Shown here: positions 1 to 14,490 of the stretch, in pieces
How the letters are laid out: each line of letters opens with the position of its first letter
Numbering within the stretch: position 1 is the stretch's first letter
DNA from: Candidatus Gygaella obscura
GTDB taxonomy: Bacteria; Omnitrophota; Gorgyraeia; Gygaellales; Gygaellaceae
NCBI GenBank assembly: GCA_030765485.1
Contig: JAVCCR010000010.1
Coordinates: 1-51,394 of the forward strand
Reading direction: 5' to 3'
Length of the DNA stretch: 51,394 bases
Program-made: the position numbers and the translations under genes
The notes under the pieces: generated by a model
The model's input: only the letters and a program-made list of their open reading frames with translations
Told to the model about the DNA's origin: nothing
Databases searched by the model: none

Positions 1-2
1 CA

Positions 3-293
3 CTTTTTGGTTATTCTGGTGAAAAAAGCGTAAATGAAATGAGTGGATCAATTAATAATTTGAGTTGTTCAATTGGTTCTGAAAATGATGTTTTAGAGTT
101 TGCCAAAGTGTTAGAAGCTTTGAATGTCCCAGCATTATCAAATGCTGTTGCCGAAGCTTATAGCGCTCCTGGTCAGGATACAAGAGGTACAAGGGGAGTA
201 CAGCAGACAGGAATTGGTAATTTAGTTCCGGCTCAAAATCCTATACCTGAAGATTTAAAGGATCTGGGTACTACTGCTGCAAGTCCAATTTAA
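3..293 (+). CDS. C-terminal part of a hypothetical protein (5' end outside the window)
   Basis: Frame is open from position 3 (LFGYSGEKSVNE-MSGS...) to the stop at 291-293 and is followed by a strong terminator. Confidence 0.6.
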   Translation, partial: LFGYSGEKSVNEMSGSINNLSCSIGSENDVLEFAKVLEALNVPALSNAVAEAYSAPGQDTRGTRGVQQTGIGNLVPAQNPIPEDLKDLGTTAASPI

Positions 294-324
294 TTAGGTC
301 TGATTGAGTTTAAAGAACATATTT

Positions 325-354
325 TAGGGAGGTTTTAACCTCCCTATTTTTTTT
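325..354 (+). terminator. Rho-independent terminator
   Basis: TAGGGAGGTT-tt-AACCTCCCTA stem followed by T8. Confidence 0.9.
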
Positions 355-407
355 ATATAATCCAACCATAGTTAAGGTGTATTTCTGATAAAAGAAGGCA
401 TTTTGTT

Positions 408-452
408 CTCATAACCTTGAGTTTCTCAGTTCAAATCTGAGTCCCGCAACCA
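408..452 (+). pseudogene. 3' half of a tRNA-Met (fMet-like); probable att scar
   Basis: CTCATAACC anticodon loop, T-arm CTCAG-TTCAAAT-CTGAG and end TCCCGCAACCA; no 5' acceptor or D arm upstream. Confidence 0.75.
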
Positions 453-455
453 GAT

Positions 456-490
456 AAAACCCGTATATCGACGAGATATGCGGGTTTTTT
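456..490 (+). terminator. Rho-independent terminator after the tRNA fragment
   Basis: AAAACCCGTATATC / GATATGCGGGTTTT stem plus T tract. Confidence 0.85.
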
Positions 491-512
491 GTTTACCCTG
501 CTAATGAGGCTA

Positions 513-544
513 TTACTACCAATTACGCTCAATTACTACCAATT
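513..544. repeat. Direct repeat TTACTACCAATT x2 (integrase arm-type-like sites)
   Basis: Copies at 513-524 and 533-544; CAATT recurs with 10-bp period. Confidence 0.55.
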
Positions 545-617
545 TTGATCAATTGTTGACACTAATTAGGCACTGTTGGTTGTTGGGTTAAAGAATTGTT
601 ATTGTTGTAAGAAAAGA

Positions 618-640
618 GCGGAGAGTGGAGAGATCCAACC
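618..640 (-). other. Degenerate tRNA-Ser-like 3' end (att core remnant)
   Basis: Minus strand reads GGTTGGATCTCTCCACTCTCCGC, resembling GGTTCGAATCCCTCCCTCTCCGCCA. Confidence 0.4.
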
Positions 641-649
641 TAAGATATA

Positions 650-859
650 ATGGATAAATTACTCACTCCTAAACAATTGAGCGAATTGCTTCAAATTAAG
701 CTATCTACAGTGTATAAATGGTCTCATTATGGATATGTTCCTTACGTAAGGATTGGTGACCTTGTGAGGTTCAAGGAAAAGAGAATTAAAGAGTGGTTAA
801 AGAAAAGAGAAAGAAAAGGGAGAAAATCATTGAGAATACACGCAATTAAAAATTATTAA
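650..859 (+). CDS. Excisionase-family helix-turn-helix protein (HTH_17 / Xis-like)
   Basis: LLTPKQLSELLQIKLSTVYKW...VPYVRIGDLVRF...IKEWL is the typical Xis/HTH_17 pattern. Confidence 0.85.
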   Translation: MDKLLTPKQLSELLQIKLSTVYKWSHYGYVPYVRIGDLVRFKEKRIKEWLKKRERKGRKSLRIHAIKNY

Positions 860-945
860 ATATTACTTGTTTCTATTATTGGTGAGATGTAATATATAAT
901 TATAGTTTTAAGTAATATGATTTCTATATGATTGGTAGGTATGTT

Positions 946-1347
946 ATGAAAAATAAATATAGACATTTAGAGATGATCCAAGGAATTATCAGTAGAATGG
1001 CCAGTAATTCTTTTTTACTGAAAGGATGGAGCGTTATTGTAGTGTCAGCATTATTTGCTTTGGCGGCTAAGGATGCAAATAGTTCTTTTGTGTATTTAGC
1101 ATTTTTTCCTGCCTTAGCTTTTTGGATTCTGGACGGCTATTTTTTAAGGCAAGAAAAACTTTTTCGAGCGCTTTATGATCATGTTAGGGGATTAGCAGAA
1201 GAAAAAATAGACTTTTCAATGGATGTGTCGGCAGTAAAAGAAAAAGTTGTTTCTTGGTTTAAATCAGCTACATCGATAACTCTTTCTATATTTCATGGGG
1301 TTATTTGCGTTTCTATTTTAATTGTGATAATCATAATTTCTATATAA
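946..1347 (+). CDS. Three-TM membrane protein (HLEMIQ..RMASNSFLLKGW family), putative defence effector coupled to TIR
   Basis: Three hydrophobic segments; ends 16 nt before the TIR gene; upstream in-frame ATG at 928 also possible. Confidence 0.7.
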   Translation: MKNKYRHLEMIQGIISRMASNSFLLKGWSVIVVSALFALAAKDANSSFVYLAFFPALAFWILDGYFLRQEKLFRALYDHVRGLAEEKIDFSMDVSAVKEKVVSWFKSATSITLSIFHGVICVSILIVIIIISI

Positions 1348-1363
1348 AAAGGAGGTTCTTAAG

Positions 1364-1807
1364 ATGGCAAGAAAAACATTTTTTAGCTTTAAATACAAAC
1401 AAGACGTTTCGAGAGCAATGGTTGTTAGAAACAGTTGGGTTACTCAAGGAAGAGAAGCGGCAGGTTTTATTGATGCGGCAAATTTTGAAGCGCTAAAGAA
1501 AAAAGGTGACGCAGAAATAAAGAAATGGATAGATAAGCAATTAGATGGAACTTCGGTAACCGTTATATTAGTGGGTGAAAAGACATGTAGTAGTCGATGG
1601 GTAAAATATGAAATTGAAAAAAGTATAAAAATAGGCAATGGTCTTCTCGGTATAGATATAAGCAAAATAAAAGATTTACAGAAGAATACTTCGGAAAAAT
1701 GTGGACAGATACCCAAAGGATATGATTTTTATTTATGGAACAATGACGACGGTTATCATAAAATGGGTGATTGGATTGAAAAAGCAGCGAAAGACGCCGA
1801 CAGATGA
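1364..1807 (+). CDS. thsB: ThsB-like TIR domain protein (MTH538 / DUF1863 family)
   Basis: RKTFFSF..D..R..VVRNSW, TSVTVILVG and RWVKYEI with catalytic-position Glu83; AGGAGG RBS. Confidence 0.85.
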   Translation: MARKTFFSFKYKQDVSRAMVVRNSWVTQGREAAGFIDAANFEALKKKGDAEIKKWIDKQLDGTSVTVILVGEKTCSSRWVKYEIEKSIKIGNGLLGIDISKIKDLQKNTSEKCGQIPKGYDFYLWNNDDGYHKMGDWIEKAAKDADR

Positions 1808-1877
1808 TTCATTATGTTTAATTTTTCCAGGGCGTTAGAGTAATTAAACTTACAGGAAAGAGAGTAAGCAGATTTTC

Positions 1878-1940
1878 TGCGCCCAAATTGCGCCCATCTA
1901 AAGCGAAAACACAGTAGACTACAGTAAACTAAAGTATAGT
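1878..1940. repeat. TGCGCCCA x2 plus 10-bp tandem ACAGTAGACT/ACAGTAAACT/AAAGTATAGT (recombinase arm or Xis-like sites)
   Basis: TGCGCCCA at 1878-1885 and 1889-1896; tandem decamers at 1911-1940. Confidence 0.55.
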
Positions 1941-2023
1941 AGGTAGAATCGTTAATCCTTTGACATGAAACAATTTACGTTGTAAATCTTCGTCGGAGAA
2001 AGAGTTACAATAACACGCTTGAC

Positions 2024-2043
2024 CGAATCACTCCCTCTTCGCC
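2024..2043 (+). other. Degenerate tRNA-Ser-like 3' end (att core remnant)
   Basis: CGAATCACTCCCTCTTCGCC resembles CGAATCCCTCCCTCTCCGCC. Confidence 0.45.
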
Positions 2044-2085
2044 TTTTTAGTAAGATAACCTTCAATAAGCAAATTTTAAAACGTC

Positions 2086-2114
2086 TTGCCAAGGATTCTC
2101 TCTAGCAGTATAAT
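2086..2114 (+). promoter_or_regulatory. Sigma70-type promoter
   Basis: TTGCCA-17 nt-TATAAT. Confidence 0.65.
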
Positions 2115-2181
2115 TAGCCTATTCACAAAGACGTGGTAAGTTAAAGGCGTTTAATGTTGATAAGCTCAAATTAGCACTTTT

Positions 2182-2216
2182 AGGCGATTTTTCTATTAAA
2201 GAGAATCGTTTTTTTA
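2182..2216 (+). terminator. Rho-independent terminator or attenuator about 70 nt after the promoter
   Basis: GGCGATTTTTCT-attaa-AGAGAATCGTT stem followed by T tract. Confidence 0.7.
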
Positions 2217-2324
2217 TTTGAAAGAAGCCTTAATGATAGATAAACAAAGAGAAGAGGGAAGAAATAAATGAATAAGGGGTTGAAGTTAGTAACTTTATTT
2301 TTGCAATTTTAATTCTTATAATAA

Positions 2325-2495
2325 GTTTTATTGCTTTATCAGAAAATAGTTTCCTTAAATAAAGAACAAAACATAGTAGAAAAAATGTTAGGGTGTGGGA
2401 ATGTTTTAATTGGGACTTCTGGCACTGGTGATTCTGAAATTAGAATACAAAACATCAATGATCCTGCAGGACTAATTAGTTTAATTAAAAGTTAG
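2325..2495 (+). pseudogene. Fragment of a bacterial PH (bPH_2-like) domain protein
   Basis: Frame reads IVSLNKEQNIVEKMLGCGNVLIGTSGTGDSEIRIQNINDP; upstream in-frame stop at 2322 and no proper N-terminus. Confidence 0.45.
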
Positions 2496-2524
2496 AAATA
2501 ATAATCAAGTTATAAAAGGTAAGA

Positions 2525-3127
2525 ATGGAAGATTTCGAGTTAATTAAAGGTTGCGTGTCGGGAGATAAGGAATCTTGGAATACATTTGTTGAGCAATATA
2601 CAAGACTAATTTATGATTCGATAATACGTACTTTTAGAAGATTCGGGGCAAGGATAGATAATGATATTATTGATGATTTACACAATGATATTTTTGTCGT
2701 GTTACTTAAAGACAACTATAGGGTATTAAGAGAGTTTGAAGGAAGAAATGGATGTTCGTTAGCTAGCTATATTAGGACTATCGGTGTACGCAAAACCATT
2801 GATTATTGGAGGAAACAACGGCCCACTATCTCAATAGATGCAGACAAGGATACAGAGGAAGGTAAGAAGGTACAATTTATTAAGGAATTGTCAGTTTTTA
2901 ACATTTTTGATTCACTCGAAAAAGAAGAAGCAGTTAATATTATCAACGAATTATTTATTGAATTAAAGGAAGAAGAAAGGAAATTCTGCTATTTATGTTT
3001 TATTGATGGTATAGAGCCAAAAGAGGCAGCTCAACAGTTAGGAATATCCGTAGATAACTTCTATGTTCGTAAGCAAAGAGCTTTGAATAAGTTAAAGAAA
3101 ATTGTAAAAGACAAAAAAATTTGTTAG
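2525..3127 (+). CDS. ECF-type RNA polymerase sigma factor
   Basis: LIKGCVSGDKESWNTFVEQY, DDLHNDIF, SLASYIRTI..RKTIDYWRK (region 2); EAAQQLGISVDNFYVRKQRA (region 4). Confidence 0.9.
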   Translation: MEDFELIKGCVSGDKESWNTFVEQYTRLIYDSIIRTFRRFGARIDNDIIDDLHNDIFVVLLKDNYRVLREFEGRNGCSLASYIRTIGVRKTIDYWRKQRPTISIDADKDTEEGKKVQFIKELSVFNIFDSLEKEEAVNIINELFIELKEEERKFCYLCFIDGIEPKEAAQQLGISVDNFYVRKQRALNKLKKIVKDKKIC

Positions 3128-3152
3128 ATTTTGGTTCCTGTTTCGTCTATTG
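3122..3152 (+). promoter_or_regulatory. Putative cognate ECF promoter, copy 1
   Basis: TGTTAGATTTTG-N10-CGTCTATTG overlapping the sigma stop codon, followed by AGGAGG RBS of the anti-sigma gene. Confidence 0.75.
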
Positions 3153-3171
3153 ACTTAGGAGGCGAATAGAT

Positions 3172-3831
3172 ATGAAAAAGAAAAAAAATAAATGTCCAGA
3201 TGTTGAAATGATAGCCTGTTATGTAGATGGTATCTTGCTTGATAGTCAAAAAGATCTTATAGAGAGTCATGCTAAAGAATGTAAACATTGTAAAGAAGAG
3301 ATAGAATGCCAAATTAGTATAGCAGGTCAGCAGAAACAAGAAGATTTGTCTTTTGCCCCGAAATATGTCACTGAGAGGGCTAAGAGTCTTGTGGATGAAA
3401 GGTTTGGTGTCAATGTTTTAGAACTTGTTGTTAAATTTACTGATAAGGCTATTGAAATTGTGCGTTCGAGTGGAGAAGTATTATTTGGAGGACAATTGCA
3501 GCCAGCTTATGCTTTGCGTGGTGAAGAATCAACAGATCGATCAACGCAGAGTATTATAAAGATTTTTAATGACATTAAAGTGGAAGTTGAAATCGTTAGA
3601 CAGGAAGATGAGTTTAACAAAATTATATTACAAATTAAGAATAATCAAACTGCAACGCCTATTGATGATTCAAGGGTTACTTTAATAGAAAAAGACATAG
3701 AAGTAGAGTCTTACATAATTCGAAATGGAAAGGCAATATTCGAGAATGTCAAACCAGGTCGCTATGCGATACAGATTTCAGATGTAGATAAGCCTATCGG
3801 AATAATAATGTTAGAATTAGATAAAGCATGA
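3172..3831 (+). CDS. Zinc-finger (zf-HC2/ZAS) anti-sigma factor, soluble, with C-terminal beta-sandwich domain
   Basis: C8...H33xxxC37xxC40; no TM; C-terminal NGKAIFENVKPGRYAIQI resembles carboxypeptidase-regulatory/Ig-like folds. Confidence 0.8.
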   Translation: MKKKKNKCPDVEMIACYVDGILLDSQKDLIESHAKECKHCKEEIECQISIAGQQKQEDLSFAPKYVTERAKSLVDERFGVNVLELVVKFTDKAIEIVRSSGEVLFGGQLQPAYALRGEESTDRSTQSIIKIFNDIKVEVEIVRQEDEFNKIILQIKNNQTATPIDDSRVTLIEKDIEVESYIIRNGKAIFENVKPGRYAIQISDVDKPIGIIMLELDKA

Positions 3832-6800
3832 TACATAATCCTACCTTTATTCTAGAAATATTAAGCGAGAAAAGCAAAATTTCAATGAGCCTTTATGAAA
3901 GAGGCTCAACGGTTCATCAATACGAAGAAGCTACCATTTCCTTTCAAGAAGTAAATAATTTATGTAAAGAGATAATAGGCCTTTTAAATAAAGCAAATAC
4001 GAAAGGAAAATTAGCTACTGGTATATCTTCTGAATTAAAAAAAGTTGGGCAAGTATTATATGACCAGTTATTGACTAATAATATAAAGCTTAAACTTAAG
4101 AATACTAAAATCGAGAATTTGCTAATTCTTATAGATGAAGGATTAGTGCAAATTCCGTGGGAGTTATTATACGATGGCGTTCAGTTTTTGTGTTTAAGAT
4201 TTAATATAGGCAGAAATGTAAAAACTCGCCAGACATTCAGAGAATCTAGCCAGAGAATAATAGGTTTTCCTATAAAAATGCTAATTTTAGCTGATCCTAC
4301 CAGTGATTTACAATTAGCACGTCAAGAAGCAAGTATTATAGAGAAGGAGTTGGATAAAAAACGTAAAATAATTAATGTTTCTAAGAAAGTAACTAATATC
4401 AATATTCAATATCTAAAGAAGAATTTAAGAGATTACGATATTGTTCATTTTGCTGGACATGCTGATTACGATTTTAAAGATGTATCTAACAGTGGATGGA
4501 GATTAATAGACGGGAGATTTACAGCTAAAGATATTATAAGCATGGGGACAACTTCGCCCTTGCCATCTATTGTTTTTTCCAATTCTTGTCAATCTGCACA
4601 GACAACGAGATGGCTAGTTGATAAGGATTTCGAAAATATAATATTTGGTTTAGCAAATGCATTTTTACTTGCAGGAGTTCGGCATTATATTGGAACTTTC
4701 TGGAAAATACCCGATGATATTGGCTTAAAGTTTGCAAAAGAATTTTATTATCAAATTGTTTTAGGAAGATCAATGGGGAATGCGATTAGAGAAGCTCGTT
4801 TAAAAACAGCAAAAGATTTCGGTGAGGACACAATAGTCTGGGCAAGTTATGTATTATACGGTGATCCTTCTGTCAGTTTTTTTGATTCTCAAAAGCCTCA
4901 ACATTGGCTAGAGAATAAGCGTAAAAAGTATACAAAACTTCTAAGTTTATTTGTAAGTCTGCTATTTATTGTTGGGATTTTTTTAGGAGTAAAAGTCTTT
5001 TCTACTAAAATTCTACCTCCTTCAGTTGCGATTTTAGATTTTAAGGATTTAAGTACAAATAAAATCGATTCATTTATCACTTATGCAATTACAGAAAATT
5101 TAAATAAGATATCTTCAGCAAATATTATTGATTTTTCTACAAGGCTAGCATCTAAGGATATCCCATTGGGGGAGTTAGCAAGCCAGTATAGAACAAAAAG
5201 ATTAATCACTGGTGAGTATATTAAGAAAGGCAATTCATTAATTATAAAAATTAAATTGATAAATCCTATCACTAGAAACATCATAAAGGCAAAGGAGATA
5301 GTCCTTAATGATGATATAGAATTAGGGGAAAATATTTCTTTGGTTCTATTAGATATGCTTAAAATAGGATTGACAGATAAAGAAAAATCAGAACTTTTGA
5401 GAAAGCCAACAGATAATCCAGACGCCTATAGAATTTTTGCACAAACGTGGGATTTGTATTTAAAGGGAAAATATAAAGAATCTTTAAGGCTTTGTAGAAA
5501 GGTCATAAAAATAGATCCTGAATATATAGCTGTTTATAAAAGAATGGGAAATATTTATGAAAGGCTTGGTCAAAGAGAGGAAGCCCTTGATTCATATTTT
5601 ACATGTGCAGATTTAAGCAAGAAAAATAATGATCTAGTAAATTTAGCAAATGCATATGCAAATATTGGGTCTGTATTACAAATATTAAAAAGAAGTCAAG
5701 ATGCATATGGCTATTATGAAAAAGCTTTGAAAATAAGTGATCAAGCTAAAGATGATTACAGTAGGGCTAAAATTTATAGTTTATTTGCAGGATGGCATGC
5801 AGAGAACAAAGAGTATGACAAGGCTATCGAATTAATCAGAGAAAGCATTGGCATTAATAAAAACAAGGAATATATATACAATCATAAGTATTATCTCGCT
5901 GCAGATTATAATCAAATGGGTATTATTCTAAAAGAGAAAGGGGAATTTGATGAGGCATTGGAATATTTTAATAAAAGCTTAGAAATATTTAAATTCTTAG
6001 GTGCAATTAGAGTTGAGAAAGAAGTAATTGAGCGAATAAACTCAGTTTTTAAACAACAGCAAGAAGAATATAAAGATACTCGAAGAAGAAAAGATGTTAG
6101 GTCGACTTCTTTTAATAAAATCGATATTCCTCAAGAACATTCTGACGCATCGATTAAGTATATAGAAAATTTTCTTGAAGAAGACAAAATTTTCTTAAAG
6201 GTAGTGAAAATATGCGATACTGCATCAAAACATCAAGATAAAGAAGAATATTTTCAGGCAATAGAGCTATACAAAGAAGCACTTGAACTAGATATTGATT
6301 ACAAAGAGCCATTACTTGCATTAGCCAACATTTATACATCTTTAGGCAAGAAAGATTTAGCTCTTGATTACTATTTTAAATATATAAAATTATGTAAATC
6401 TAATCAAGACAGTTTTTCTTTGATAAGTGCTTATTTTTCCATTGGTAATCTTTATGAAGAGATGAGCATAGATGGAAATGATCAAAGGAATCATGCGATG
6501 AAAAATTACAACAATGCTCGAGAATTAGCCAAAAAACTAAATTGTTCTTATTCGTTAGCTCAAGCATATATTGCTATAGGATGGTGGTATTCAGATTGGG
6601 AAATGGATTATAAAAAAGCTCTTGAATATTTATTGAAAGCAGAATATTTATTGAAGATTATAACACCTGAATTTGAGTTAGTAGAAGTTTATAACGATAT
6701 CGGATATCAATATCTCTATATGAATGAATATGATAAGGCATCAGAATATTTTTCAAGAAATTTTGAGTTGTTAAAATCCCTGGATCATAAAAAAGGGTTG

Positions 6801-7583
6801 ATGCGTTATTATGATAATATAGGAGGTATGTATTATTGTAGGGCCAATTATAGTGAAGCAATGGAGACATACAAAAAAGGTTTAGAAATAGCTGAGAAGT
6901 TAGAGTCCGAAGAAGATGAATTACTTTTCCAAAATGCTATTGCTCAGATATACGAGGAAAAAGGAGAATATATTAATGCAATTGATTTATATTCAAAGGC
7001 AATAAAGTTTTATGAATCTAAGAAGTTTAAATCCAGGACAACAAAATTGATTATGGCTGCAATTTATAGCGATCTTGGTAGCAGCTATTCAAAAATTGAT
7101 GATTATAATAATGCTTTTAAGAATTTAAATATTTCATTAAATTTCTATAAAGATCTTGATGATAGATCTGGTATTTCTGTTTGTTGTAATTCATTAGGTG
7201 TAGTTTATTTCTATCAAAATGATTTTGATGAAGCTTTAAGATATTATAATTTGGCCTTAAAAGAGTCAAAATTAGATAAGGAGCCAGATAATAGAGATTA
7301 TTCAATATACGGAAATATAGGGGAAGTCTATTATAAAAAAGGAGATAATGATAAAGCTTTAGTGTTTTACGATAAGGCCCTTAAATATTCTGAACAGTGC
7401 AATGACGATGCTTACAAAGCTTGGGTATATCAATATATTGGTTTAGCTTACGATAGGAAGGGTTTTAAAGATACCGCTTTAAAATATCTAACTCGAGCTA
7501 AAGAACTAATTTACAAGTTGAATACTGAAAAAGCAAGAGAGTATCAAGAAGGCTTGAAAAGGTTAAAGGAGCTTGGCAAATAA
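3828..7583 (+). CDS. CHAT (caspase-like) protease - TM - TolB_N-like - multi-TPR membrane protein
   Basis: QIPWELLYD, DIVHFAGH (H211), VFSNSC (C254), WASYVLYGD; TM about 371-388; PPSVAILDF and PTDNPDAY motifs; many TPRs; ATGA overlap with anti-sigma. Confidence 0.9.
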   Translation: MIHNPTFILEILSEKSKISMSLYERGSTVHQYEEATISFQEVNNLCKEIIGLLNKANTKGKLATGISSELKKVGQVLYDQLLTNNIKLKLKNTKIENLLILIDEGLVQIPWELLYDGVQFLCLRFNIGRNVKTRQTFRESSQRIIGFPIKMLILADPTSDLQLARQEASIIEKELDKKRKIINVSKKVTNINIQYLKKNLRDYDIVHFAGHADYDFKDVSNSGWRLIDGRFTAKDIISMGTTSPLPSIVFSNSCQSAQTTRWLVDKDFENIIFGLANAFLLAGVRHYIGTFWKIPDDIGLKFAKEFYYQIVLGRSMGNAIREARLKTAKDFGEDTIVWASYVLYGDPSVSFFDSQKPQHWLENKRKKYTKLLSLFVSLLFIVGIFLGVKVFSTKILPPSVAILDFKDLSTNKIDSFITYAITENLNKISSANIIDFSTRLASKDIPLGELASQYRTKRLITGEYIKKGNSLIIKIKLINPITRNIIKAKEIVLNDDIELGENISLVLLDMLKIGLTDKEKSELLRKPTDNPDAYRIFAQTWDLYLKGKYKESLRLCRKVIKIDPEYIAVYKRMGNIYERLGQREEALDSYFTCADLSKKNNDLVNLANAYANIGSVLQILKRSQDAYGYYEKALKISDQAKDDYSRAKIYSLFAGWHAENKEYDKAIELIRESIGINKNKEYIYNHKYYLAADYNQMGIILKEKGEFDEALEYFNKSLEIFKFLGAIRVEKEVIERINSVFKQQQEEYKDTRRRKDVRSTSFNKIDIPQEHSDASIKYIENFLEEDKIFLKVVKICDTASKHQDKEEYFQAIELYKEALELDIDYKEPLLALANIYTSLGKKDLALDYYFKYIKLCKSNQDSFSLISAYFSIGNLYEEMSIDGNDQRNHAMKNYNNARELAKKLNCSYSLAQAYIAIGWWYSDWEMDYKKALEYLLKAEYLLKIITPEFELVEVYNDIGYQYLYMNEYDKASEYFSRNFELLKSLDHKKGLMRYYDNIGGMYYCRANYSEAMETYKKGLEIAEKLESEEDELLFQNAIAQIYEEKGEYINAIDLYSKAIKFYESKKFKSRTTKLIMAAIYSDLGSSYSKIDDYNNAFKNLNISLNFYKDLDDRSGISVCCNSLGVVYFYQNDFDEALRYYNLALKESKLDKEPDNRDYSIYGNIGEVYYKKGDNDKALVFYDKALKYSEQCNDDAYKAWVYQYIGLAYDRKGFKDTALKYLTRAKELIYKLNTEKAREYQEGLKRLKELGK

Positions 7584-7613
7584 TATAAACTATTATATAT
7601 CATTGTGTTAGAG

Positions 7614-7648
7614 AAAAGAGACATAATTATAAAAATGTCTCTTTTTTT
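7614..7648 (+). terminator. Rho-independent terminator after the CHAT-TPR gene
   Basis: AAAAGAGACAT / ATGTCTCTTTT stem with T7. Confidence 0.75.
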
Positions 7649-7678
7649 GTTAGATTTTGTTTTTTCTTGCGTCTATTG
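7648..7678 (+). promoter_or_regulatory. Putative cognate ECF promoter, copy 2
   Basis: TGTTAGATTTTG-N10-CGTCTATTG with boxes and spacing identical to 3122-3152; followed by AAGGAGG RBS. Confidence 0.75.
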
Positions 7679-7691
7679 TTAGTGAAAGGAG

Positions 7692-7880
7692 GTGAGAAAC
7701 ATGGGAAAGGTGATAATAACAATTTTGGTAGGTTTAACGATTGGAATTAATAGCGTTTATGCTATGGTAGATGAGAGTAGCCGTAATTTAGTTATTAAAG
7801 GAAAAGAAAATAGGAATTATATACAACAGTCAGTTATAGTTGATGATTTTGGATCTTTAACAAACCTACGGAAGTTCTAA
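7692..7880 (+). CDS. Small secreted protein
   Basis: Signal-peptide-like N-terminus ending VYA; AAGGAGG RBS; ATG at 7701 is an alternative start. Confidence 0.6.
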   Translation: MRNMGKVIITILVGLTIGINSVYAMVDESSRNLVIKGKENRNYIQQSVIVDDFGSLTNLRKF

Positions 7881-7895
7881 AAAAGGAGACATATC

Positions 7896-8087
7896 ATGAA
7901 AAAATTAATTATTCTCGCATTAGCAATAGTAGTAAGTTTAAATCTGGCTAGTAGTGTTTTTGCAGCAACAAAATGGATAAGTGGTTATTCTACAAGAAGT
8001 GGACAGTACAGAAGCGGACATTTTAGAGATACTTCCAATGACGGCTATTTATATAATAATGCAAATTATTTAGGGTTAAATGATTAG
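7896..8087 (+). CDS. Small secreted protein with GYxxxxGxYxxxHxR motif
   Basis: Signal peptide ending VFA; mature KWISGYSTRSGQYRSGHFR; AAGGAG RBS. Confidence 0.75.
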   Translation: MKKLIILALAIVVSLNLASSVFAATKWISGYSTRSGQYRSGHFRDTSNDGYLYNNANYLGLND

Positions 8088-8109
8088 TAAAATGAAAAGG
8101 AGATATCAA

Positions 8110-8325
8110 ATGAAGGCTACTTTAATATTAGGTTTAGTTTTGATAATGTTTGTAAGTTTTATTAGCATTGCAAAAGCAGATGTGTACGTGAGAGGTTATC
8201 ATCGAAATAACGGAACATACGTAGCTCCTCATTACAGGTCAAATCCAGATGGCGTTCGTTCGAATAATTGGGGATGTTGTGGTAATGTAAATCCTTATAA
8301 TGGTAAGGTTGGCACAGGATGGTAG
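8110..8325 (+). CDS. Small secreted protein (YVRGYxRxNGTYVAPHYRS...GNVNPY.GK.GT family)
   Basis: Signal peptide ending AKA; conserved-looking motif of a widespread uncharacterised family; AAGGAG RBS. Confidence 0.8.
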   Translation: MKATLILGLVLIMFVSFISIAKADVYVRGYHRNNGTYVAPHYRSNPDGVRSNNWGCCGNVNPYNGKVGTGW

Positions 8326-8408
8326 TTTTTAATGATAGAGGGAGCAGGCTTTTTTTCTTGCTTCCTAGTGTTGATGTATTTAATCATATTTGAATAAAGA
8401 GGTATATA

Positions 8409-8595
8409 ATAAAAAGAACAATTATTCCCGTAGTCGTAGCCGTTATTATTGGTTTTTTTTGTGTGGGTAGCTAACATAGTCTCAGGAACAGCTATAACAA
8501 TAAAGAATGAAGGGAATGTGAAAGTGAAGGGCTTTGCTAAGCAGGAGATTAAATCAGATCAAGGTATTTGTAAACACAGTAGATTAAATGAATAA
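8409..8595 (+). pseudogene. 5' fragment of a SIMPL/DUF541-like protein
   Basis: TM-like IIPVVVAVIIGFF, frameshift in T8 run at 8453-8460, then VKVKGFAKQEIKSDQGI; truncated. Confidence 0.45.
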
Positions 8596-9526
8596 AAAAT
8601 ATTTAATAGTTGCATTTATCCTTATGTTGAATACTCAGATTGCTTTTGGAGGAAGTCCGAGTACTCTGACCAAGATAGAAAAAACCTGCGGTGAATATTT
8701 CATTAAAATATGCGAATATGACGAAGAAGGTATTCCATTGGTTTTGGATAGACTTGAAATTTATAAAAATAATGAGTTAATATATAAAGATGAGAACAAG
8801 CAGTTCAGAATCGGATTGATGTATGACGAAATGCCGGAAGGTGCGCTTATTAACGGTTGCCAGGATATCACTGGCGATGGGCAGCTGAACTTAGTAATAG
8901 CTAATTATAGTGGAGGTGCTCATTGTTGTTTTGGTTTTATGATTTTTCAACTAGGAGAAAACTTTAAGCTTTTAGATACAGTTAATGCAGGAGATTCTGA
9001 TTTAGCCAGATTTGAAGATTTAGATGGTGACGGCAAGCTAGAATTTATCGGTAATGATTGGACCTTTGCTTATTGGAATGAAACTTTTTTTGGGTCACCA
9101 GAACCGAGAATTGTCCTTAAATATCGAGGCGGAAAGTATCTTTTGGCATTAGATTTAATGAAGAAGCCTTTACCGAGTCCGAGAGAAGAAGAGAAAATCT
9201 TTAAGAATATTCAATCTGATATAAGAAAGATTGAGCAAAGTAGTAAAATGCAGATTAAGAAAGACCTGCCGTTTGGAGAGCCGGATGTGGGGAAAGATAC
9301 TGGATACTTTGCTTGGGTAAAAGGAGATGTTATATTACCAGGTTCTGTATGGGGGTATATGTTGGATTTGATTTATACAGGTCATCCCAGTGAGGCTTGG
9401 CGATTTCTAGATAAGGTGTGGCCAGAGGGCAAAAGCGGCAAAGAAAAGTTTATAGCCGATTTTAAAGAGCAGCTTTCCCTAAGTCCTTATTGGGATTCTA
9501 TAAAGATTAATATAGAGAAAGAATGA
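8588..9526 (+). CDS. Secreted protein with Ca-binding DxxGDG loops (FG-GAP/VCBS-like)
   Basis: Signal peptide; DITGDG, DLDGDGKLE and YSGGAHCC motifs. Confidence 0.7.
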   Translation: MNKKYLIVAFILMLNTQIAFGGSPSTLTKIEKTCGEYFIKICEYDEEGIPLVLDRLEIYKNNELIYKDENKQFRIGLMYDEMPEGALINGCQDITGDGQLNLVIANYSGGAHCCFGFMIFQLGENFKLLDTVNAGDSDLARFEDLDGDGKLEFIGNDWTFAYWNETFFGSPEPRIVLKYRGGKYLLALDLMKKPLPSPREEEKIFKNIQSDIRKIEQSSKMQIKKDLPFGEPDVGKDTGYFAWVKGDVILPGSVWGYMLDLIYTGHPSEAWRFLDKVWPEGKSGKEKFIADFKEQLSLSPYWDSIKINIEKE

Positions 9527-9766
9527 ATAAAAAACAATTAATAGTTATCTATATTCGGATAACACTCGGATAACAAAACACGCACAAACACCGTATAAAA
9601 CCGTATAACAACAAACAAATCAATCCGCTGTAACCATAAACAAGATAAAGCATTAGATAATATCAGCAAAAACCATATAAATCTCCAGGACAACTCATAG
9701 GGGAAGAGGATATTGGCAATGTTCTTTATTCCAACCAAATTCCACTCATAACAAAGATTATTCTAA

Positions 9767-9808
9767 TTGACAATAGAATTAAGTATCGTATAATGAGTAT
9801 GTACTCAT
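9767..9808 (+). promoter_or_regulatory. Sigma70 promoter with overlapping palindromic operator
   Basis: TTGACA(9767)-16 nt-TATAAT(9789); ATGAGTA-tg-TACTCAT at 9793-9808. Confidence 0.7.
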
Positions 9809-9876
9809 AATAAATAGGGCGTTAAATGGAGGTAAAAATAAAGTGTATTTTAATGATTTAAGTAAAAATAAGTAAA

Positions 9877-10179
9877 ATGAAACCTCGAGGAAGACCCAAA
9901 AAAACAAGGAAAATCCAGTATCAACCAAGGATTAGTCAGTTTAGTCCAAGGGGTAAACCTGGTAGACCTGATGAAGTAGTGCTTACTGAAGATGCTTTTG
10001 AGGCAGTCAGGCTATGTGATCATTTAGAGCTAGACCAAACTCAGGCAGCTAAAACCATGGGCATATCTCAGCAGACCTTAAGCCGGGTATTAAAAAAGGC
10101 ACGCAAAGTAATAGCAGATGCCATAGCTAATGGTAAGATAATAAAGATCCAAGCAAGTCCTGAAGTAAAAGGAAAGTAA
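9877..10179 (+). CDS. DUF134 family DNA-binding protein
   Basis: RGRPKK.R.I....FSP...V.L....EAVRLCD...LDQ..AA..MGISQQT.SRVL..ARK.IADA..NGK.I.I. Confidence 0.85.
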   Translation: MKPRGRPKKTRKIQYQPRISQFSPRGKPGRPDEVVLTEDAFEAVRLCDHLELDQTQAAKTMGISQQTLSRVLKKARKVIADAIANGKIIKIQASPEVKGK

Positions 10180-10296
10180 TGTTTACTGCAGTTATTCTTT
10201 AATAAGATCCTGCCCAAACAATAAATAAAAGAACAGATAGTAAGATAGCTTATAAACAAAAAAGGCTTTAAAAGCTTAAAAGGGCCTGTATGTGTA

Positions 10297-10324
10297 ACTT
10301 CCTATAATGTACCTTATGTTAACT
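10297..10324 (+). other. dif: dif site (XerC/XerD chromosome dimer resolution)
   Basis: ACTTCCTATAA-TGTACC-TTATGTTAACT, 11-6-11 layout close to B. subtilis and E. coli dif; intergenic at the strand-orientation switch. Confidence 0.85.
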
Positions 10325-10493
10325 TAGGCCTATAGTGAAAACCCAGGCTAACTAAGGGTATTTAATGAGGTTATATTAGTGTTAATATCGCCTGTGGATA
10401 ATCCCAGTCAAACTTACTTGGGCTTACTTATTCTTTTATTTGTCTTATTTGCCCTTATTCTAACTTACCTTATAAACCATTATACCTGAAACC

Positions 10494-11657
10494 TTATATA
10501 TTCTTACCGGGATTATAAATCTTTATTAATTGGGCAGGGATAAGAGTCCAATCACCATATTTTTGGTTGATTTTATCCATAATATTGCTTATGTCCTCTC
10601 TTCTTTGGATCTCTTTTAAGAGGTTTTTTTGAGGGGCTTGAAACTGGCTGGTTGATACCCCAAGAGCCCTTAAAAAGGGTCTATTTGGGGCTATCTTTCG
10701 CCAAATTTGGCATGTTTTCTCATAGATATCCTGGCCGTTATTGGTAGGTAATTGGAAGGTTTTTTGGCGGGTAATTCCTTTAAAATCCTTATCCTTAGAA
10801 TACCAAAAGCTGATCGTCTTAGCTGTGAGGTTATGTTTGCGTAGTCTTACAGAAACCATTTCAGAAAGCAGCCTGATCCAGTTAAGGATTAAGTCTTGGT
10901 TGTTGGTTGAGCGATTTAAGGTGTATGAATGGCCTATGGATTTGGCTGGGTTAACCTGGGGGTTTAGACTGAAAGAATCTTGCCCATGAAGTTCTAAAAA
11001 AAGATTAAAACCAACCTTACCAAAGTGGCTATTTAGAAAGCTTTGGTTTTGATTGTACAAGTCCAAACAGGTATAAAACCCTAAATTGTTAAGCCGTTCT
11101 AATGTGACTTTACCAATCCCAGACAGCTTACCCACATCAGTATTTTTTAGGGTTTTTTCCATAGTTTTTTTATCTAAAATACACACACCATCAGGTTTGT
11201 TTAGTTTAGATGCTAGCTTAGCTAATAGGCAGTTTTTGGCAACACCAATTGAGCAAGTGATGTTAAATTCTTTAACTATCCAGCGCTTTATGTTATTGCA
11301 GATTTTTACATATTCTTCAGGATGGGTATCGCGTAAATCCAGCTGAAATTCATCAATGGAGACATACTGTGGGTTAGGGTCAAACTTAAATAGCATTTCA
11401 AATATGACCTCAGATGTATATACATATTTAGCGGAGTCTGCCGGTACAAATTCTGCCTGCGGACAGATTAGAAAAGCTTCTTTAGTAGGCATTCCGGAGT
11501 CAATACCTAAGCGTTTGGCTTCATAGCTAGCAGCACAAACTACAGTATAATTTTTATTGCCGCGTGAACCGACAATCAAAGGTAAACCTTTAAGAGTAGG
11601 ATTTACAGCCTGTTCTATTGAGGCGAAAAAAGCATCCATATCAATATGTATGATCAT
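10494..11657 (-). CDS. dinB: DNA polymerase IV (Y family)
   Basis: IIHIDMDAFFASIE, AASYEAK..GI.SGM, SIDE, AKLAS...KPDG. Confidence 0.92.
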   Translation of the reverse strand: MIIHIDMDAFFASIEQAVNPTLKGLPLIVGSRGNKNYTVVCAASYEAKRLGIDSGMPTKEAFLICPQAEFVPADSAKYVYTSEVIFEMLFKFDPNPQYVSIDEFQLDLRDTHPEEYVKICNNIKRWIVKEFNITCSIGVAKNCLLAKLASKLNKPDGVCILDKKTMEKTLKNTDVGKLSGIGKVTLERLNNLGFYTCLDLYNQNQSFLNSHFGKVGFNLFLELHGQDSFSLNPQVNPAKSIGHSYTLNRSTNNQDLILNWIRLLSEMVSVRLRKHNLTAKTISFWYSKDKDFKGITRQKTFQLPTNNGQDIYEKTCQIWRKIAPNRPFLRALGVSTSQFQAPQKNLLKEIQRREDISNIMDKINQKYGDWTLIPAQLIKIYNPGKNI

Positions 11658-11666
11658 AAGCTCTAT

Positions 11667-11682
11667 ACGTACATTTGTGTGG
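11667..11682. promoter_or_regulatory. Putative LexA box upstream of dinB
   Basis: ACGTACATTTGTGTGG, similar to the site upstream of lexA. Confidence 0.6.
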
Positions 11683-11692
11683 TAGGGAGAGT

Positions 11693-11727
11693 AGAAAAGA
11701 GAGACCTCTTCTTTTTTTAGGTCCCTC
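11693..11727 (-). terminator. Terminator between the VOC gene and dinB
   Basis: Minus strand GAGGGACCT...AGGTCTCTC followed by TTTTCT. Confidence 0.6.
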
Positions 11728-11730
11728 CTG

Positions 11731-12126
11731 TTACTGCTTCAGAGATTGTTTTATCTCATATAGGTTATTATCTTTATCTCTGATAAAGGTTATAATGCGA
11801 TCTTCTTTATTGGTTTGGATTATTTTTAGGTTAAAGGCGCGGGCAGTTTCTAAAAAAACCTCTAGGTTATCAACCGTAAAGCATAGATGCGTAAAATCCT
11901 GCCTATGGTGTTTCATCTTGCTATTAATAAATACCTCTATAAAAACATTCGTAGTTTTATCTTCAAATAGCATGATTTCATCTGGGGGTTTTAGTTCAAA
12001 GATGTCACTAGATAGTTTGTCAGTTATGTTAAAGCTTGATACCTCAGCTAAGCCTAATAATTCCCTAAAGATCATCCGGGCATTGTCAACGCTGGAGGTT
12101 TCTACAGCTGCATGAATAAAACTCAT
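11731..12126 (-). CDS. VOC/glyoxalase family protein
   Basis: FIHAAV, HLCFTVDNLE, FIRDKDNNLYEI. Confidence 0.8.
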   Translation of the reverse strand: MSFIHAAVETSSVDNARMIFRELLGLAEVSSFNITDKLSSDIFELKPPDEIMLFEDKTTNVFIEVFINSKMKHHRQDFTHLCFTVDNLEVFLETARAFNLKIIQTNKEDRIITFIRDKDNNLYEIKQSLKQ

Positions 12127-12404
12127 GAAATAATCCTTTCTAAATACCAGTTAAAGGTATTAGGGTTAAATGATATCTGGTAGTTGTCAATCCCAGCATT
12201 AACTGAGAACAGGTTTATTTTATCACTGCCTTTGGCTTCTTGCCAATAATAATTAATTCTTTTTATCTTTATAAGCCTGTCTTTCCAGATAAAGTATCTG
12301 GGTTTAATTTTACCATTGGTAAATATGGCTGAGACTGATATTTTTTCATTAAAGGATGAACCTTCACTAGGTAATTGCCTATCCCAACGTGCCTCTTTAA
12401 ACAT
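12123..12404 (-). CDS. DUF6504-like small protein (mutagenesis-cassette accessory)
   Basis: P.YFIW..R..KI..I..YW...F.V......W.LERI pattern; co-transcribed with lexA. Confidence 0.6.
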   Translation of the reverse strand: MFKEARWDRQLPSEGSSFNEKISVSAIFTNGKIKPRYFIWKDRLIKIKRINYYWQEAKGSDKINLFSVNAGIDNYQISFNPNTFNWYLERIIS

Positions 12405-12406
12405 AA

Positions 12407-12997
12407 TTAGTACTTTCTGATTATAGCAATGACTTTGCCGGAGATGGTAGTATCTTTGGTAAATTCTATTGGTTTATAACGATTATTAGCAGGCTGTAAG
12501 TAAAACTTGTTATTTTTCTTAACTAATCTTTTAATAGTTGCATCATTATCTATTAAAGCAACGACAATATCATTATTATTAGCTGTTACTTGTTTTTTTA
12601 CTAAAGCTAAGTCATCTTCGTGTATGCCAGCATCAATCATGCTATCACCTTTAACCCGTAACATAAAAATACCTTCATCTCTTATAATATTATCAAGACT
12701 AAAATAATCTTCTAGGTATTCAGTAGCTAAGTTAGGCGTACCCGCTGGGATCTTACCTAAAATAGGCACTCCAATAAAGGGTTTTCTAAGTAACTCTATA
12801 GAACGAGCCTTTTTGGCGTGTATTTTAATAAAACCTTTTTCTTTTAGGCTGTTTAAGTAATCTCTTACAGTACCGGTTGATGAAAAACCCATAGCTTGGG
12901 CTATTTCACGAATGGTTGGAGGAAGGTTCTTCCCTACTCTCTCTTGGATAAATTTTAATACTTTAGCTTGTTTTTGAGTTAGGTTACTGTGTGGCAT
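12407..12997 (-). CDS. lexA: SOS repressor LexA
   Basis: LTQKQ..VL.FI, PPTIREIA; PAG cleavage site, GDSM (Ser) and TIKR (Lys). Confidence 0.95.
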   Translation of the reverse strand: MPHSNLTQKQAKVLKFIQERVGKNLPPTIREIAQAMGFSSTGTVRDYLNSLKEKGFIKIHAKKARSIELLRKPFIGVPILGKIPAGTPNLATEYLEDYFSLDNIIRDEGIFMLRVKGDSMIDAGIHEDDLALVKKQVTANNNDIVVALIDNDATIKRLVKKNNKFYLQPANNRYKPIEFTKDTTISGKVIAIIRKY

Positions 12998-13003
12998 ATA
13001 CTA

Positions 13004-13033
13004 ACTATACCACACATTTGAGTGGATTGTCAA
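13004..13033 (-). promoter_or_regulatory. lexA promoter with palindromic operator in the spacer
   Basis: Minus strand TTGACA-18 nt-TATAGT; CCACACATTTGAGTGG at 13010-13025. Confidence 0.75.
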
Positions 13034-13101
13034 GAGTTGCTTAGATATTAATAAATTTTTAACTAAAAATGTTTGAGTTCAGAACGGGTCCCCGGACTAG
13101 T

Positions 13102-13841
13102 CTAAGCATGCATGCTTTTTGAATGCCTGGTTTTGATTAATTTCTTCGCGACCTTTGAGATGACCTCATCAACTCTTATTTTTTTCATAGACAAACACGG
13201 CGTTTGGTAAAGAGAAGGCGGACATCTTAACTTATCAACGCCCCAGCACTCATCATTAATATTTAGTTTCGCTTGTATAATATTCTCGCGATGAAAATAT
13301 GGATACACATAGTCTTTGGGAGTAGGGCCATAAAGACCGATGGTCTCAACGTTCAAACAGCTAGCTATGTGCAAAAGGTTTGAATCTGGCCCGATAAAAA
13401 ATTGGCACCGTGAAATCAAGGAAATCGCCTGCTTTAATGTAGTTTGATTAATCAGTGAAATAATCGTCGGTGAAATACTATTTACTAATCGCTTGTTATC
13501 ATACTTCCCAAGGGCAATAGTTTTAATATTATATTCTTTTCTGAGACGAGATGCAAAAACAATGATCAAGTCAAACCTTTCACGATTCAATTTAAAACTA
13601 AATTTAAGTTTATCGAGAAAGTGACGGTGCTTCTCGCGTTCTAAAACTATAATCTCATCAACGCCGGGATAAACTTTTGAAGTTTTTTTGCTTTTGAAGA
13701 AACAAAAAAGGTAATATGGGCTTGAGGAAAATGCCTCTTTAAGGGTTGAATAAGAGCCAAGTCATAACAAACATCACCTATGTTGGAATGTCCTCTTATC
13801 AGAATTTTAATATTCCGATTTCTATTTAGTGTTATATTCAT
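13102..13841 (-). pseudogene. GT9 heptosyltransferase-like pseudogene
   Basis: KILI...SNIGD...PLKRHFP.AHIT and FIGPDS..LHIA...GLYGPT motifs lie in different frames (shift near an A7 run about 13683-13689); central part of the fold appears deleted. Confidence 0.75.
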
Positions 13842-14490
13842 TTTTTAAAACAGTTGGCTTGATAGAAACGTCATCTAGAAAAGACAGCAAGGCATTTAAA
13901 AACCCGGCAAAAAACATGGAAACGCCTATAAGTTTTAAGCTTTCTTCTGCAACTTCAAGAAAAATATTAATTCTCTCCAGAAAATGAAATGTCACAGTTA
14001 ACGCCAGAAAAAAACCTCCCAGGTACAAAAAAACAAGTAGCACTCTATGTTCAGCAATACTTTTGAAAAAATAAATACAGACACATATAGCCACTAACCC
14101 GAAGAATGCGATGAGAGTTGCATCTAAATTCAAATGCGAAATATCCTTACCCGTAAGCAGATAACCCACAAATTCATCCATGCCTTCATGGGCCATAAAA
14201 TACTCATCCAAGCACAGATAAAAAAACCCAATAGATGTAATCAACCAAAATAACCCTTTTTTGAAATAAGTGTGAGATTTTCTCTTTAATAAATATAAAA
14301 TCAAACAAGCAAGAGACGTGGCTCCAAGCATTAATGCTGATAAAAAAGTCACGGCTTCCTTTTCGTTAAATCTCAACATCGGGTTATTGCGGTCAATTCC
14401 TTCTTTAATGCAAATGGATAGGACAAGCCCGTTAAAAATGGCTAAACATAGCAGGGTGATACATATTCTTTTCTTGTTAATAGCAGACAT
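13822..14490 (-). CDS. Multi-TM membrane protein (LDE...HE motif)
   Basis: Six hydrophobic segments; LDEYFMAHE and EESLKLIG. Confidence 0.7.
   Translation of the reverse strand: MSAINKKRICITLLCLAIFNGLVLSICIKEGIDRNNPMLRFNEKEAVTFLSALMLGATSLACLILYLLKRKSHTYFKKGLFWLITSIGFFYLCLDEYFMAHEGMDEFVGYLLTGKDISHLNLDATLIAFFGLVAICVCIYFFKSIAEHRVLLVFLYLGGFFLALTVTFHFLERINIFLEVAEESLKLIGVSMFFAGFLNALLSFLDDVSIKPTVLKNEYNTK

Follow-up and report, generated by a model that had tools for sequence, protein, structure and literature searches.

A stop-codon-embedded ECF-type promoter candidate and its predicted regulon at a sigma/anti-sigma/CHAT locus of Candidatus Gygaella obscura and in related Omnitrophota

Genes and motif copies at the locus

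To our knowledge, the regulation of the Omnitrophota, uncultured bacteria with small genomes, is essentially unknown. The stretch of DNA analyzed here (the window; 51,394 nucleotides, contig JAVCCR010000010.1, assembly GCA_030765485.1) comes from a member of this phylum, Candidatus Gygaella obscura, and encodes an extracytoplasmic function (ECF) type sigma factor followed by a putative zinc-binding anti-sigma factor, a CHAT protease with TPR arrays and a group of small secreted-looking proteins (Table 1). A two-box motif, TGTTAGATTTTG-N10-CGTCTATTG, occurs twice in the window with identical boxes and spacing, at 3122-3152 and 7648-7678, both on the plus strand. An initial annotation made from the sequence alone had proposed that the two copies are promoters of the adjacent sigma factor, which would drive its own anti-sigma factor and protease as well as the small secreted-protein cluster, and the comparative genomics presented below supports that proposal. 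It is probable that copy 1 serves as the promoter of the anti-sigma and CHAT/TPR genes and copy 2 as that of three small secreted-looking proteins, both read by the sigma factor encoded beside them.

The first gene of the locus matches the sigma70-ECF model TIGR02937 at 66.6 bits (cut-off 42.9) and the Pfam family Sigma70_r4_2 at 26.2 bits (cut-off 25.7), with Sigma70_r2 at 19.1 bits falling under its cut-off of 24. A profile of 20 orthologs aligns over its full length to solved structures of SigW (the best match, 5wuq, E 1.7e-14), SigK and RpoE. With regions 2 and 4 only and a length of about 200 amino acids (aa), the open reading frame (ORF) has the composition that defines the ECF (group 4) sigma factors; in NCBIfam only the superfamily model matches it, and no equivalog for its family was found.

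The product of the second gene matches zf-HC2 weakly (18.4 bits, below the cut-off of 22.2), and its HxxxCxxC residues H33, C37 and C40 are invariant across 18 orthologs. A complex model of the sigma factor with anti-sigma residues 1-80 scored 0.83, against 0.15 for the best of three controls, a mark attained by 58 of 80 solved complexes and 2 of 110 mismatched pairs; contacts agreed by at least 97% between runs, and the partner reached a predicted local distance difference test (pLDDT) value of at least 82. The model supports the prediction that this product binds the sigma factor as the cognate anti-sigma factor encoded next to it, though the pass may reflect likeness rather than constitute proof, because complexes of ECF sigma factors with zinc anti-sigma factors have already been solved. 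The third product contains CHAT (E 4.2e-36) and TPR_12 (E 4.2e-59) domains, and its orthologs in relatives are shorter (about 720-800 aa) and lie after the anti-sigma gene.

Table 1. Positions of genes and signals at the locus, numbered from the first base of the window
Feature	Position	Strand	Remarks
ECF-type sigma factor gene, 200 aa	2525..3127	+	ORF; profile matches
A/T tract, possible UP-like element	3112..3121	+	Abuts first box upstream; within sigma coding sequence
Copy 1 upstream box, -35-like	3122..3133	+	Conserved core GTTAGATTT at 3123-3131; overlaps last codon and stop of sigma gene
Copy 1 downstream box, -10-like	3144..3152	+	CGTCTATT plus G
AGGAGG ribosome-binding site (RBS) of anti-sigma gene	3157..3162	+	ATG at 3172
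Anti-sigma factor, 219 aa	3172..3831	+	N-terminal zinc-binding HxxxCxxC domain; by eye without membrane helix
CHAT (caspase-like) protease domain, hydrophobic segment, long TPR arrays; 1251 aa	3828..7583	+	Start overlaps anti-sigma stop
Terminator-like hairpin and T-run ending the sigma/anti-sigma/CHAT unit	7611..7648	+	Stems 7611-7624 and 7635-7648
Copy 2 upstream box	7648..7659	+	Pattern and matrix matches
Copy 2 downstream box	7670..7678	+	Pattern and matrix matches
AGGAGG RBS	7687..7692	+	ATG at 7701
Small protein, 59 aa, signal-peptide-like N-terminus	7701..7880	+	No family
Small secreted-looking protein, 63 aa	7896..8087	+	No family
Small secreted-looking protein, 81 aa	8080..8325	+	Nearest language-model clusters are unnamed small hypothetical proteins
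Secreted-looking protein, 312 aa	8588..9526	+	Weak FG-GAP-like match

The motif stands well clear of background. The 31-nucleotide (nt) pattern still yields just the two window matches when three mismatches are permitted, and none of 100 dinucleotide-preserving shuffles of the window contained it. The initial annotation had suggested a genome-wide scan; across the whole assembly (G000; 1,384,577 bases, 33 contigs, 94% complete, 35% G+C) the same two sites alone were found, with no match to the backwards control pattern. A weight matrix trained on sites of relatives only, with G000 excluded, scored the two copies at 41.4 and 38.1, the next best site in G000 at 8.5, and the top sites of three shuffled genomes at 8.3-12.0. 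The two spacers have 5 of 10 bases in common and the flanks outside the boxes differ, so the copies are not a duplicated segment of DNA.

The last codon of the sigma ORF (TGT, 3122-3124) and its stop (TAG, 3125-3127) both lie within the first box of copy 1, as the initial annotation had noted, and both copies are followed by an AGGAGG whose distance to the ATG is 8-9 nt. From the usual ECF promoter geometry, transcription would be expected to start at about 3155-3158 for copy 1 and 7681-7684 for copy 2, and the A/T tract upstream of copy 1 may be an UP-like element, judging from its sequence. Copy 2 had been described as beginning at the terminator that closes the CHAT gene, and its first base (7648) indeed coincides with the final T of the T-run of a hairpin that starts 28 nt past the CHAT stop codon. 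The 61-nt stretch containing this hairpin (7600-7660) folds at -14.9 kcal/mol (z -3.37; none of 200 shuffles as good). The hairpin was revealed by folding and was not listed by a consensus terminator scan, whose upper limit of 8 nt is below the 10 nt of this loop.

Conservation and anatomy of the motif

Evidence that the motif belongs to the sigma factor comes from its position at the 3' end of orthologous sigma genes, which the initial annotation had named as a place to look. Orthologs of 28-36% identity are present in most genomes of the same order, and the core GTTAGATTT-N12-CGTCTATT was found at the sigma 3' end in 20 of 20 order-level loci, 17 of them exact for GTTAG-N16-CGTCTAT and three with one or two changes, counts that overstate independence since the genomes of one order are kin. 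Among further sigma orthologs, two of three carry the motif with one or two changes. A scan of one genome per species turned up 210 relatives, of which 80, mostly labelled Candidatus Omnitrophota, were kept; in 62 of the 80, a site scoring more than 15 with the matrix lay between -40 and +60 relative to the sigma stop. Of the 18 loci without a match, nine are on G+C-rich contigs assigned by their labels to other phyla, five are Omnitrophota in which the gene ends differently, and four have a variant in spacing or sequence or a site at +63.

How the motif is read by the ribosome differs between these loci. The G of GTTAG lies at -10 (23 loci), -16 (13 loci) or -13 (2 loci) relative to the sigma stop, where it is read within Leu-Asp/Glu codons; at -2 in 17 loci, where the TAG of the motif is itself the stop codon, as in the window; and at +2 (2 loci) or +9 to +17 (5 loci), the latter being intergenic. 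The motif is therefore kept in at least three coding contexts, and it is the DNA rather than the encoded peptide that is under selection.

When the pattern was searched in 41 relatives, 96 matches were found in 27 genomes, against 11 for the backwards control. The logo of these 96 sites shows AAAAATTT at positions -10 to -3, then GTTAGATTT and a pyrimidine-rich stretch, followed by T, one free base, CGTCTATT and a purine, and, at +35 to +42, by a block rich in purines. Conservation extends to positions that the search pattern leaves open, namely ATTT after GTTAG and a T two bases before CGTC, and the distance from TGTTAG to CGTC is 16 nt. Position and orientation are constant, most sites lying 20-31 nt before a start codon. 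Four sites lie 31-33 nt before tRNA genes, and the recA sites lie about 100 nt upstream of the gene, ahead of a TTGACA box; such placement is in keeping with a signal for transcription and not for translation. ECF promoters typically have an AAC-containing -35 box and a CGT-containing -10 box, and the 16-nt spacing and CGTC box of the motif fit recognition by an ECF-type sigma factor.

Across the phylum, the motif and the sigma factor tend to occur together. In a sample of 151 genomes, the exact motif was present in 12 of the 15 with a strong sigma ortholog and in 2 of the 136 others, and both of the latter look like chance matches; a strong ortholog was defined as E < 1e-45, a threshold set post hoc at a score gap between 4e-49 and 2e-34. 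With the looser threshold of E <= 1e-15, the motif was found in 13 of 62 genomes with a sigma match and in 1 of 89 without. The motif likewise lies immediately 3' of the sigma gene in two genomes of a different class, G062 and G163. Taken together, these comparisons support the view of the motif as a phylum-scale regulon signal, with predicted targets that differ by family.

Several observations weigh against a simple pairing of this sigma factor with the motif, in addition to the kinship of the genomes counted above. The backwards control produced about 49 matches in the 151 genomes, or about 0.3 per genome, so that single isolated matches carry no weight by themselves and it is position that counts. 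Three genomes (G026, G123 and G164) have a strong ortholog without the exact motif, and in G026 the sigma gene runs directly into the anti-sigma gene with no motif. The -35-like box GTTAGATTT lacks AAC, though the -10-like CGTCTATT has CGTC. At many sites in relatives the spacer pairs with downstream sequence, which a plain promoter does not need. Finally, genome G006 (94% complete) has seven sites, and three queries found no sigma or CHAT ortholog in it; either the assembly lacks its sigma locus or the motif has another reader.

This last case bears on the alternative that the motif is a genuine promoter or operator read by a different sigma factor or DNA-binding regulator, with the anti-sigma/CHAT unit merely one of its targets. 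The atypical first box would be consistent with such a reader, and in G000 itself at least one further sigma-like gene (C11) shows weak similarity (E 4.7e-4). The near confinement of the motif to genomes that hold the sigma factor and its attachment to the sigma stop in about 80 species argue against it, as do the ECF-like spacing and -10 box, and the G006 locus may simply be missing from the assembly; a different reader is accordingly considered unlikely. The seven G006 sites precede comM, recA, a spoVG-dprA operon, comEA and others.

A second alternative, that the repeat is the remnant of a mobile element or a chance repeat with no regulatory function, can be weighed on the same data. Y1 transposase-like, ORF6N and Bro-N genes are frequent downstream of the motif in relatives, and neither sigma factor, CHAT gene nor motif was found in a genome of the same genus (G001, 93% complete), so that members of the genus differ in whether they have the module, which may be located in a variable region. 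Against this stand the restriction of the similarity to the boxes, the failure of any shuffle to match, the constant placement of the 96 sites relative to start codons and the presence of housekeeping genes among the targets, which together make a functionless repeat extremely improbable. The reading of the motif as a promoter of the neighboring sigma factor remains the preferred one.

Targets of the motif and spacer pairing in relatives

In G000, the predicted regulon consists of two units only, the anti-sigma/CHAT genes and the three small secreted-looking proteins. No Pfam or NCBIfam family matched the three small ORFs (59, 63 and 81 aa) above cut-off. The 59-aa protein has no relative in the fetched loci, the 63-aa protein has a sub-threshold match to the NCBIfam ExtJ model (17.5 bits, cut-off 52.5), and the 81-aa protein has one 42-aa match (55% identity) in locus L107. 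The 63- and 81-aa proteins have the motif G-Y-x-R-x-x-G-x-Y...H-x-R in common, and their nearest named cluster in a protein atlas, PBCV_basic_adap (score 0.81), is a weak lead only. Whether the 312-aa protein belongs to the copy 2 unit is uncertain because it follows a 262-nt gap and has no clear RBS.

The regulon in relatives appears to be wider. First downstream genes were tallied for 94 sites outside G000 and include anti-sigma genes (21 sites, two of them 78-79-aa paralogs), Y1_Tnp (14), the ComM-like Mg-chelatase family (9), ORF6N (8), RecA (6), SpoVG followed by shikimate kinase, DprA and topoisomerase I (aroK-dprA-topA; 6, with the dprA operon at 6 to 8), ComEA-like proteins followed by ComEC (6) and BNR-like proteins (4). 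The remaining 20 sites precede RadC (one site), Bro-N, a LexA-peptidase-methylase fusion, four tRNA genes and others, including one probable chance match (L116). Genome G035 has about six extra sites with one or two changes (Y1, BNR-like, Bro-N, XRE/UvrD-like). The targets concerned with DNA uptake and processing occur in families f3 and f5, and pilus, comF and ssb genes were not among the motif targets. In G000, recA, comEA-comEC and aroK-dprA-topA carry no motif, not even a degenerate copy, and have sigma-70-like boxes instead.

Some individual targets merit mention. In loci L026 and L028 (genomes G013 and G036), 78-79-aa paralogs of the anti-sigma N-terminal domain lie apart from the sigma locus, each with its own motif copy. 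Locus L065 of genome G012 encodes a 510-aa protein (1614-3143, plus strand) in which a LexA DNA-binding domain, an S24 peptidase and an N6/N4 DNA methylase are fused, with the motif about 90 nt upstream of the gene. The tRNA genes with the motif 31-33 nt upstream are found in L086 (4397-4472, minus strand), L107 (4396-4471, minus), L063 (1562-1637, plus) and L061 (1560-1634, plus); they encode tRNA-Val(AAC) twice, tRNA-Ala(AGC) once and tRNA-Val(GAC) once, and the first three lie directly 3' of 23S-5S rRNA genes. Val and Ala anticodons beginning with A are unusual in bacteria. Locus L063 (genome G038) also contains an Rfam group I intron (126-422, plus strand; 64.7 bits) inside its 23S rRNA gene.

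A further feature of the sites in relatives is that the stretch between the boxes is often complementary to sequence just past the -10-like box, usually the RBS. Mean duplex energies were -8.89 kcal/mol for spacers paired with their own downstream sequence and -7.19 kcal/mol for cross-site pairings, and none of 5000 permutations was as low. The effect depends on the class of gene, with mean duplex energies (in kcal/mol) of -15.2 for BNR-like genes, -14.1 for the dprA operon, -11.9 for recA, -11.6 for Y1 and -11.0 for ORF6N, compared with -6.0 for ComM, -5.9 for ComEA, -4.5 for the anti-sigma genes (n=22) and -4.8 for 228 control genes. Especially strong hairpins, in which the -10-like box sits in the loop and the promoter spacer pairs with the RBS, occur at L030 (4471-4530, minus strand; -25.3 kcal/mol, z -5.65) and L039 (1501-1560, plus strand; -21.3 kcal/mol, z -4.61), whereas neither window copy folds better than shuffled sequence (z -0.9). 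Being optional and dependent on gene class, the pairing is interpreted as an add-on and not as part of the core of the motif. A general role of these hairpins as intrinsic terminators was rejected, since TTTT precedes the start codon at only 6 of 63 motif sites, against 7 of 228 control genes; the sites that do have TTTT are a minor subset, mostly at Y1 transposase-like genes. The best guess is that the pairing provides insulation, in which read-through RNA would contain both arms and hide the RBS, while RNA initiated by the sigma factor would lack the upstream arm.

The pairing is also the main reason for keeping alive, at a low level, a third alternative, namely that the motif is a transcribed 5'-leader RNA element in which the RBS base-pairs with the inter-box stretch to form a hairpin that leaves CGUCUAUU in the loop and controls translation, with the boxes serving as protein or ligand contacts. 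The same-site advantage in pairing energy, the folds at L030 and L039 and the purine-rich RBS at a fixed distance from the motif are what such an element would predict. Pairing at the control level for the anti-sigma, ComM and ComEA genes and shuffle-like folding of both window copies are not, and neither is the presence of the motif before tRNA genes and about 100 nt upstream of recA. A promoter that would transcribe the motif is likewise hard to place: no sigma-70-type boxes and no other conserved sequence lie upstream of the AAAAATTT tract in the 96-site logo, for which reason transcription of such a leader from a sigma-70 promoter just upstream was rejected, and copy 2 starts at the last T of a terminator. 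An Rfam search of window positions 2000-9000 gave no match at E up to 1, which also counts against a leader RNA. Such an element is regarded as very unlikely, even more so than a different reader of the motif, and the promoter interpretation is retained below.

Two side observations concern the neighborhood of the locus. A 54-aa ORF just 5' of the sigma gene (2331-2495, plus strand) covers positions 29-74 of a 78-position bacterial PH domain model and may be a truncated gene. Further downstream, ORFs at 10494-11657 and 12407-12997 (both minus strand) resemble by eye a DinB-like Y-family DNA polymerase and LexA, respectively.

Proposed feedback wiring and comparison with known systems

Positive autoregulation from a cognate upstream promoter is a common, though not universal, trait of ECF sigma factors. 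The initial annotation had reported no copy upstream of the sigma gene and had concluded that it is not classically autoregulated, and this holds more widely: the best matrix score in window positions 1-2545 is -7.4, and no cognate motif was found in the 400 nt preceding the sigma gene at any of 96 related loci (best score -2.4). These data argue for negative feedback without classical autoregulation. In several loci of relatives, a divergent site upstream of the sigma gene would drive a Y1 transposase-like gene. A second copy just after the CHAT gene, as described for copy 2, recurs in relatives, where the next gene usually encodes a secreted BNR/Ycf48-like protein of about 520 aa.

The proposed signal would consist, in order, of an A/T tract, the GTTAGATTT -35-like box, a 12-nt variable stretch and the CGTCTATT -10-like box, with transcription starting a few bases on, which would leave very little message ahead of the RBS. 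Copy 1, which overlaps the 3' end of the sigma gene, would drive the anti-sigma and CHAT/TPR genes, so that free sigma factor would raise its own inhibitor and the presumed signal protease but not itself; such wiring predicts negative feedback and resetting without positive autoregulation. Basal amounts of the anti-sigma factor and the CHAT protein would be supplied by read-through from the sigma gene's own promoter, and copy 2, right after the terminator of the unit, would drive the three small secreted-looking proteins. In this scheme the motif is presumed to act as a promoter, this sigma factor to read it, transcription to start at the positions predicted above and the CHAT protein to inactivate the anti-sigma factor.

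The element is thus supported, from genome comparison, as half of an ECF promoter/sigma pair that would be unusual in its first box, in a promoter laid over the sigma stop codon without an autoregulatory copy, and in a regulon that depends on family and is competence-like in relatives. The sigma factor and its probable promoter are conserved in about 80 species-level genomes, tightly enough for regulons to be read from sequence. A more speculative extension, which is possible but tentative, is that the sigma factor, zinc anti-sigma factor and CHAT-TPR protein form a competence-like master switch in Omnitrophota. A signal sensed by the TPR arrays would lead CHAT to remove the anti-sigma factor, and the sigma factor would then read GTTAGATTT-N12-CGTCTATT at comEA-comEC, dprA-topA, comM, recA, radC, DNA-binding genes of the mobile-element type and the tRNAs with A34; the stop-codon promoter would reset the switch, spacer hairpins would silence read-through, and in Candidatus Gygaella obscura the circuit would have been rewired to a few small secreted proteins.

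In the full-text literature, no paper was found that links Omnitrophota, sigma factors and competence, or an Omnitrophica ECF sigma factor with this module, though supplements to ECF classifications may list the group. Among known systems, the module resembles the ECF (group 4) sigma factors, e.g., SigW of Bacillus subtilis, in its two-domain sigma factor of about 200 aa with an adjacent zinc-type anti-sigma factor, and their promoters in its two boxes, CGTC-type -10 and 16-nt spacing; it differs from them in a -35-like box without AAC, the lack of an autoregulatory promoter and the lack of an equivalog match.

In the fold-back inhibition of IS10 and IS50, sequence 5' of the native transcription start pairs with the RBS and blocks the translation of read-through transcripts. 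The complementarity of spacer and RBS at many sites in relatives is similar, but here the arm would be part of the promoter spacer and the loop would contain the -10 box, the arrangement is regulon-wide rather than limited to a transposase gene, and it is not significant at the window copies.

ComX of streptococci is an alternative sigma factor that drives competence genes in Firmicutes. In Staphylococcus aureus, SigH is reported to be a competence sigma factor (PMC3486894). The likeness to ComX and SigH is seen in sister families only, where the motif precedes comEA-comEC, dprA, recA, radC and comM; the same genes carry sigma-70-like promoters in G000, and the likeness is one of target genes. 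The predicted regulon of these sister families corresponds to a textbook set for DNA uptake and processing, and would make the control of natural transformation testable in an uncultured phylum.

The closest parallel to the placement of copy 1 is the P3 promoter of Escherichia coli rseA, a sigma-E-dependent promoter inside rpoE that transcribes rseABC in negative feedback (PMC8595263, in its account citing Rhodius et al., 2006). In both cases the coding region of the sigma gene contains a promoter read by the sigma factor (predicted here), from which the anti-sigma gene is transcribed. According to the same account, rpoE of E. coli is also preceded by a sigma-E-dependent promoter, which provides positive autoregulation, whereas none was found in the 96 loci examined here; transcription from P3 begins 228 nt ahead of rseA, with a long leader (PMC8595263), whereas here the boxes lie over the stop codon and the predicted leader is about 15 nt.

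For the protease, the nearest known systems are the type III-E craspase and the Myxococcus DdvS/DdvA pair. In the craspase, as outlined in PMC10028731, the TPR-CHAT protein Csx29 cleaves Csx30 and frees CASP-sigma for promoters in or near its own locus, so that, as in the window, one locus encodes an ECF-like sigma factor, its protein inhibitor and a TPR/CHAT protease. In the window, a zinc-finger anti-sigma factor takes the place of Csx30, and the protease, which would cleave it, has the order CHAT, membrane segment, TPR. The sigma factor scores 33.9 bits against the CAS_III-E_sigma model (cut-off 100) and is not of that family, and no cas-like genes were noticed among the ORFs of window positions 1-14000, for which no dedicated search was run. 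The ECF sigma factor DdvS is controlled by DdvA (PMC11506125), in which a zinc-binding anti-sigma domain and a TPR-CHAT module form one transmembrane protein, whereas in the window they are encoded by two genes and the anti-sigma factor has no evident membrane helix. Through its separate CHAT/TPR protease partner, the module is linked to a recently described group of defense-system sigma factors that are released by proteases.

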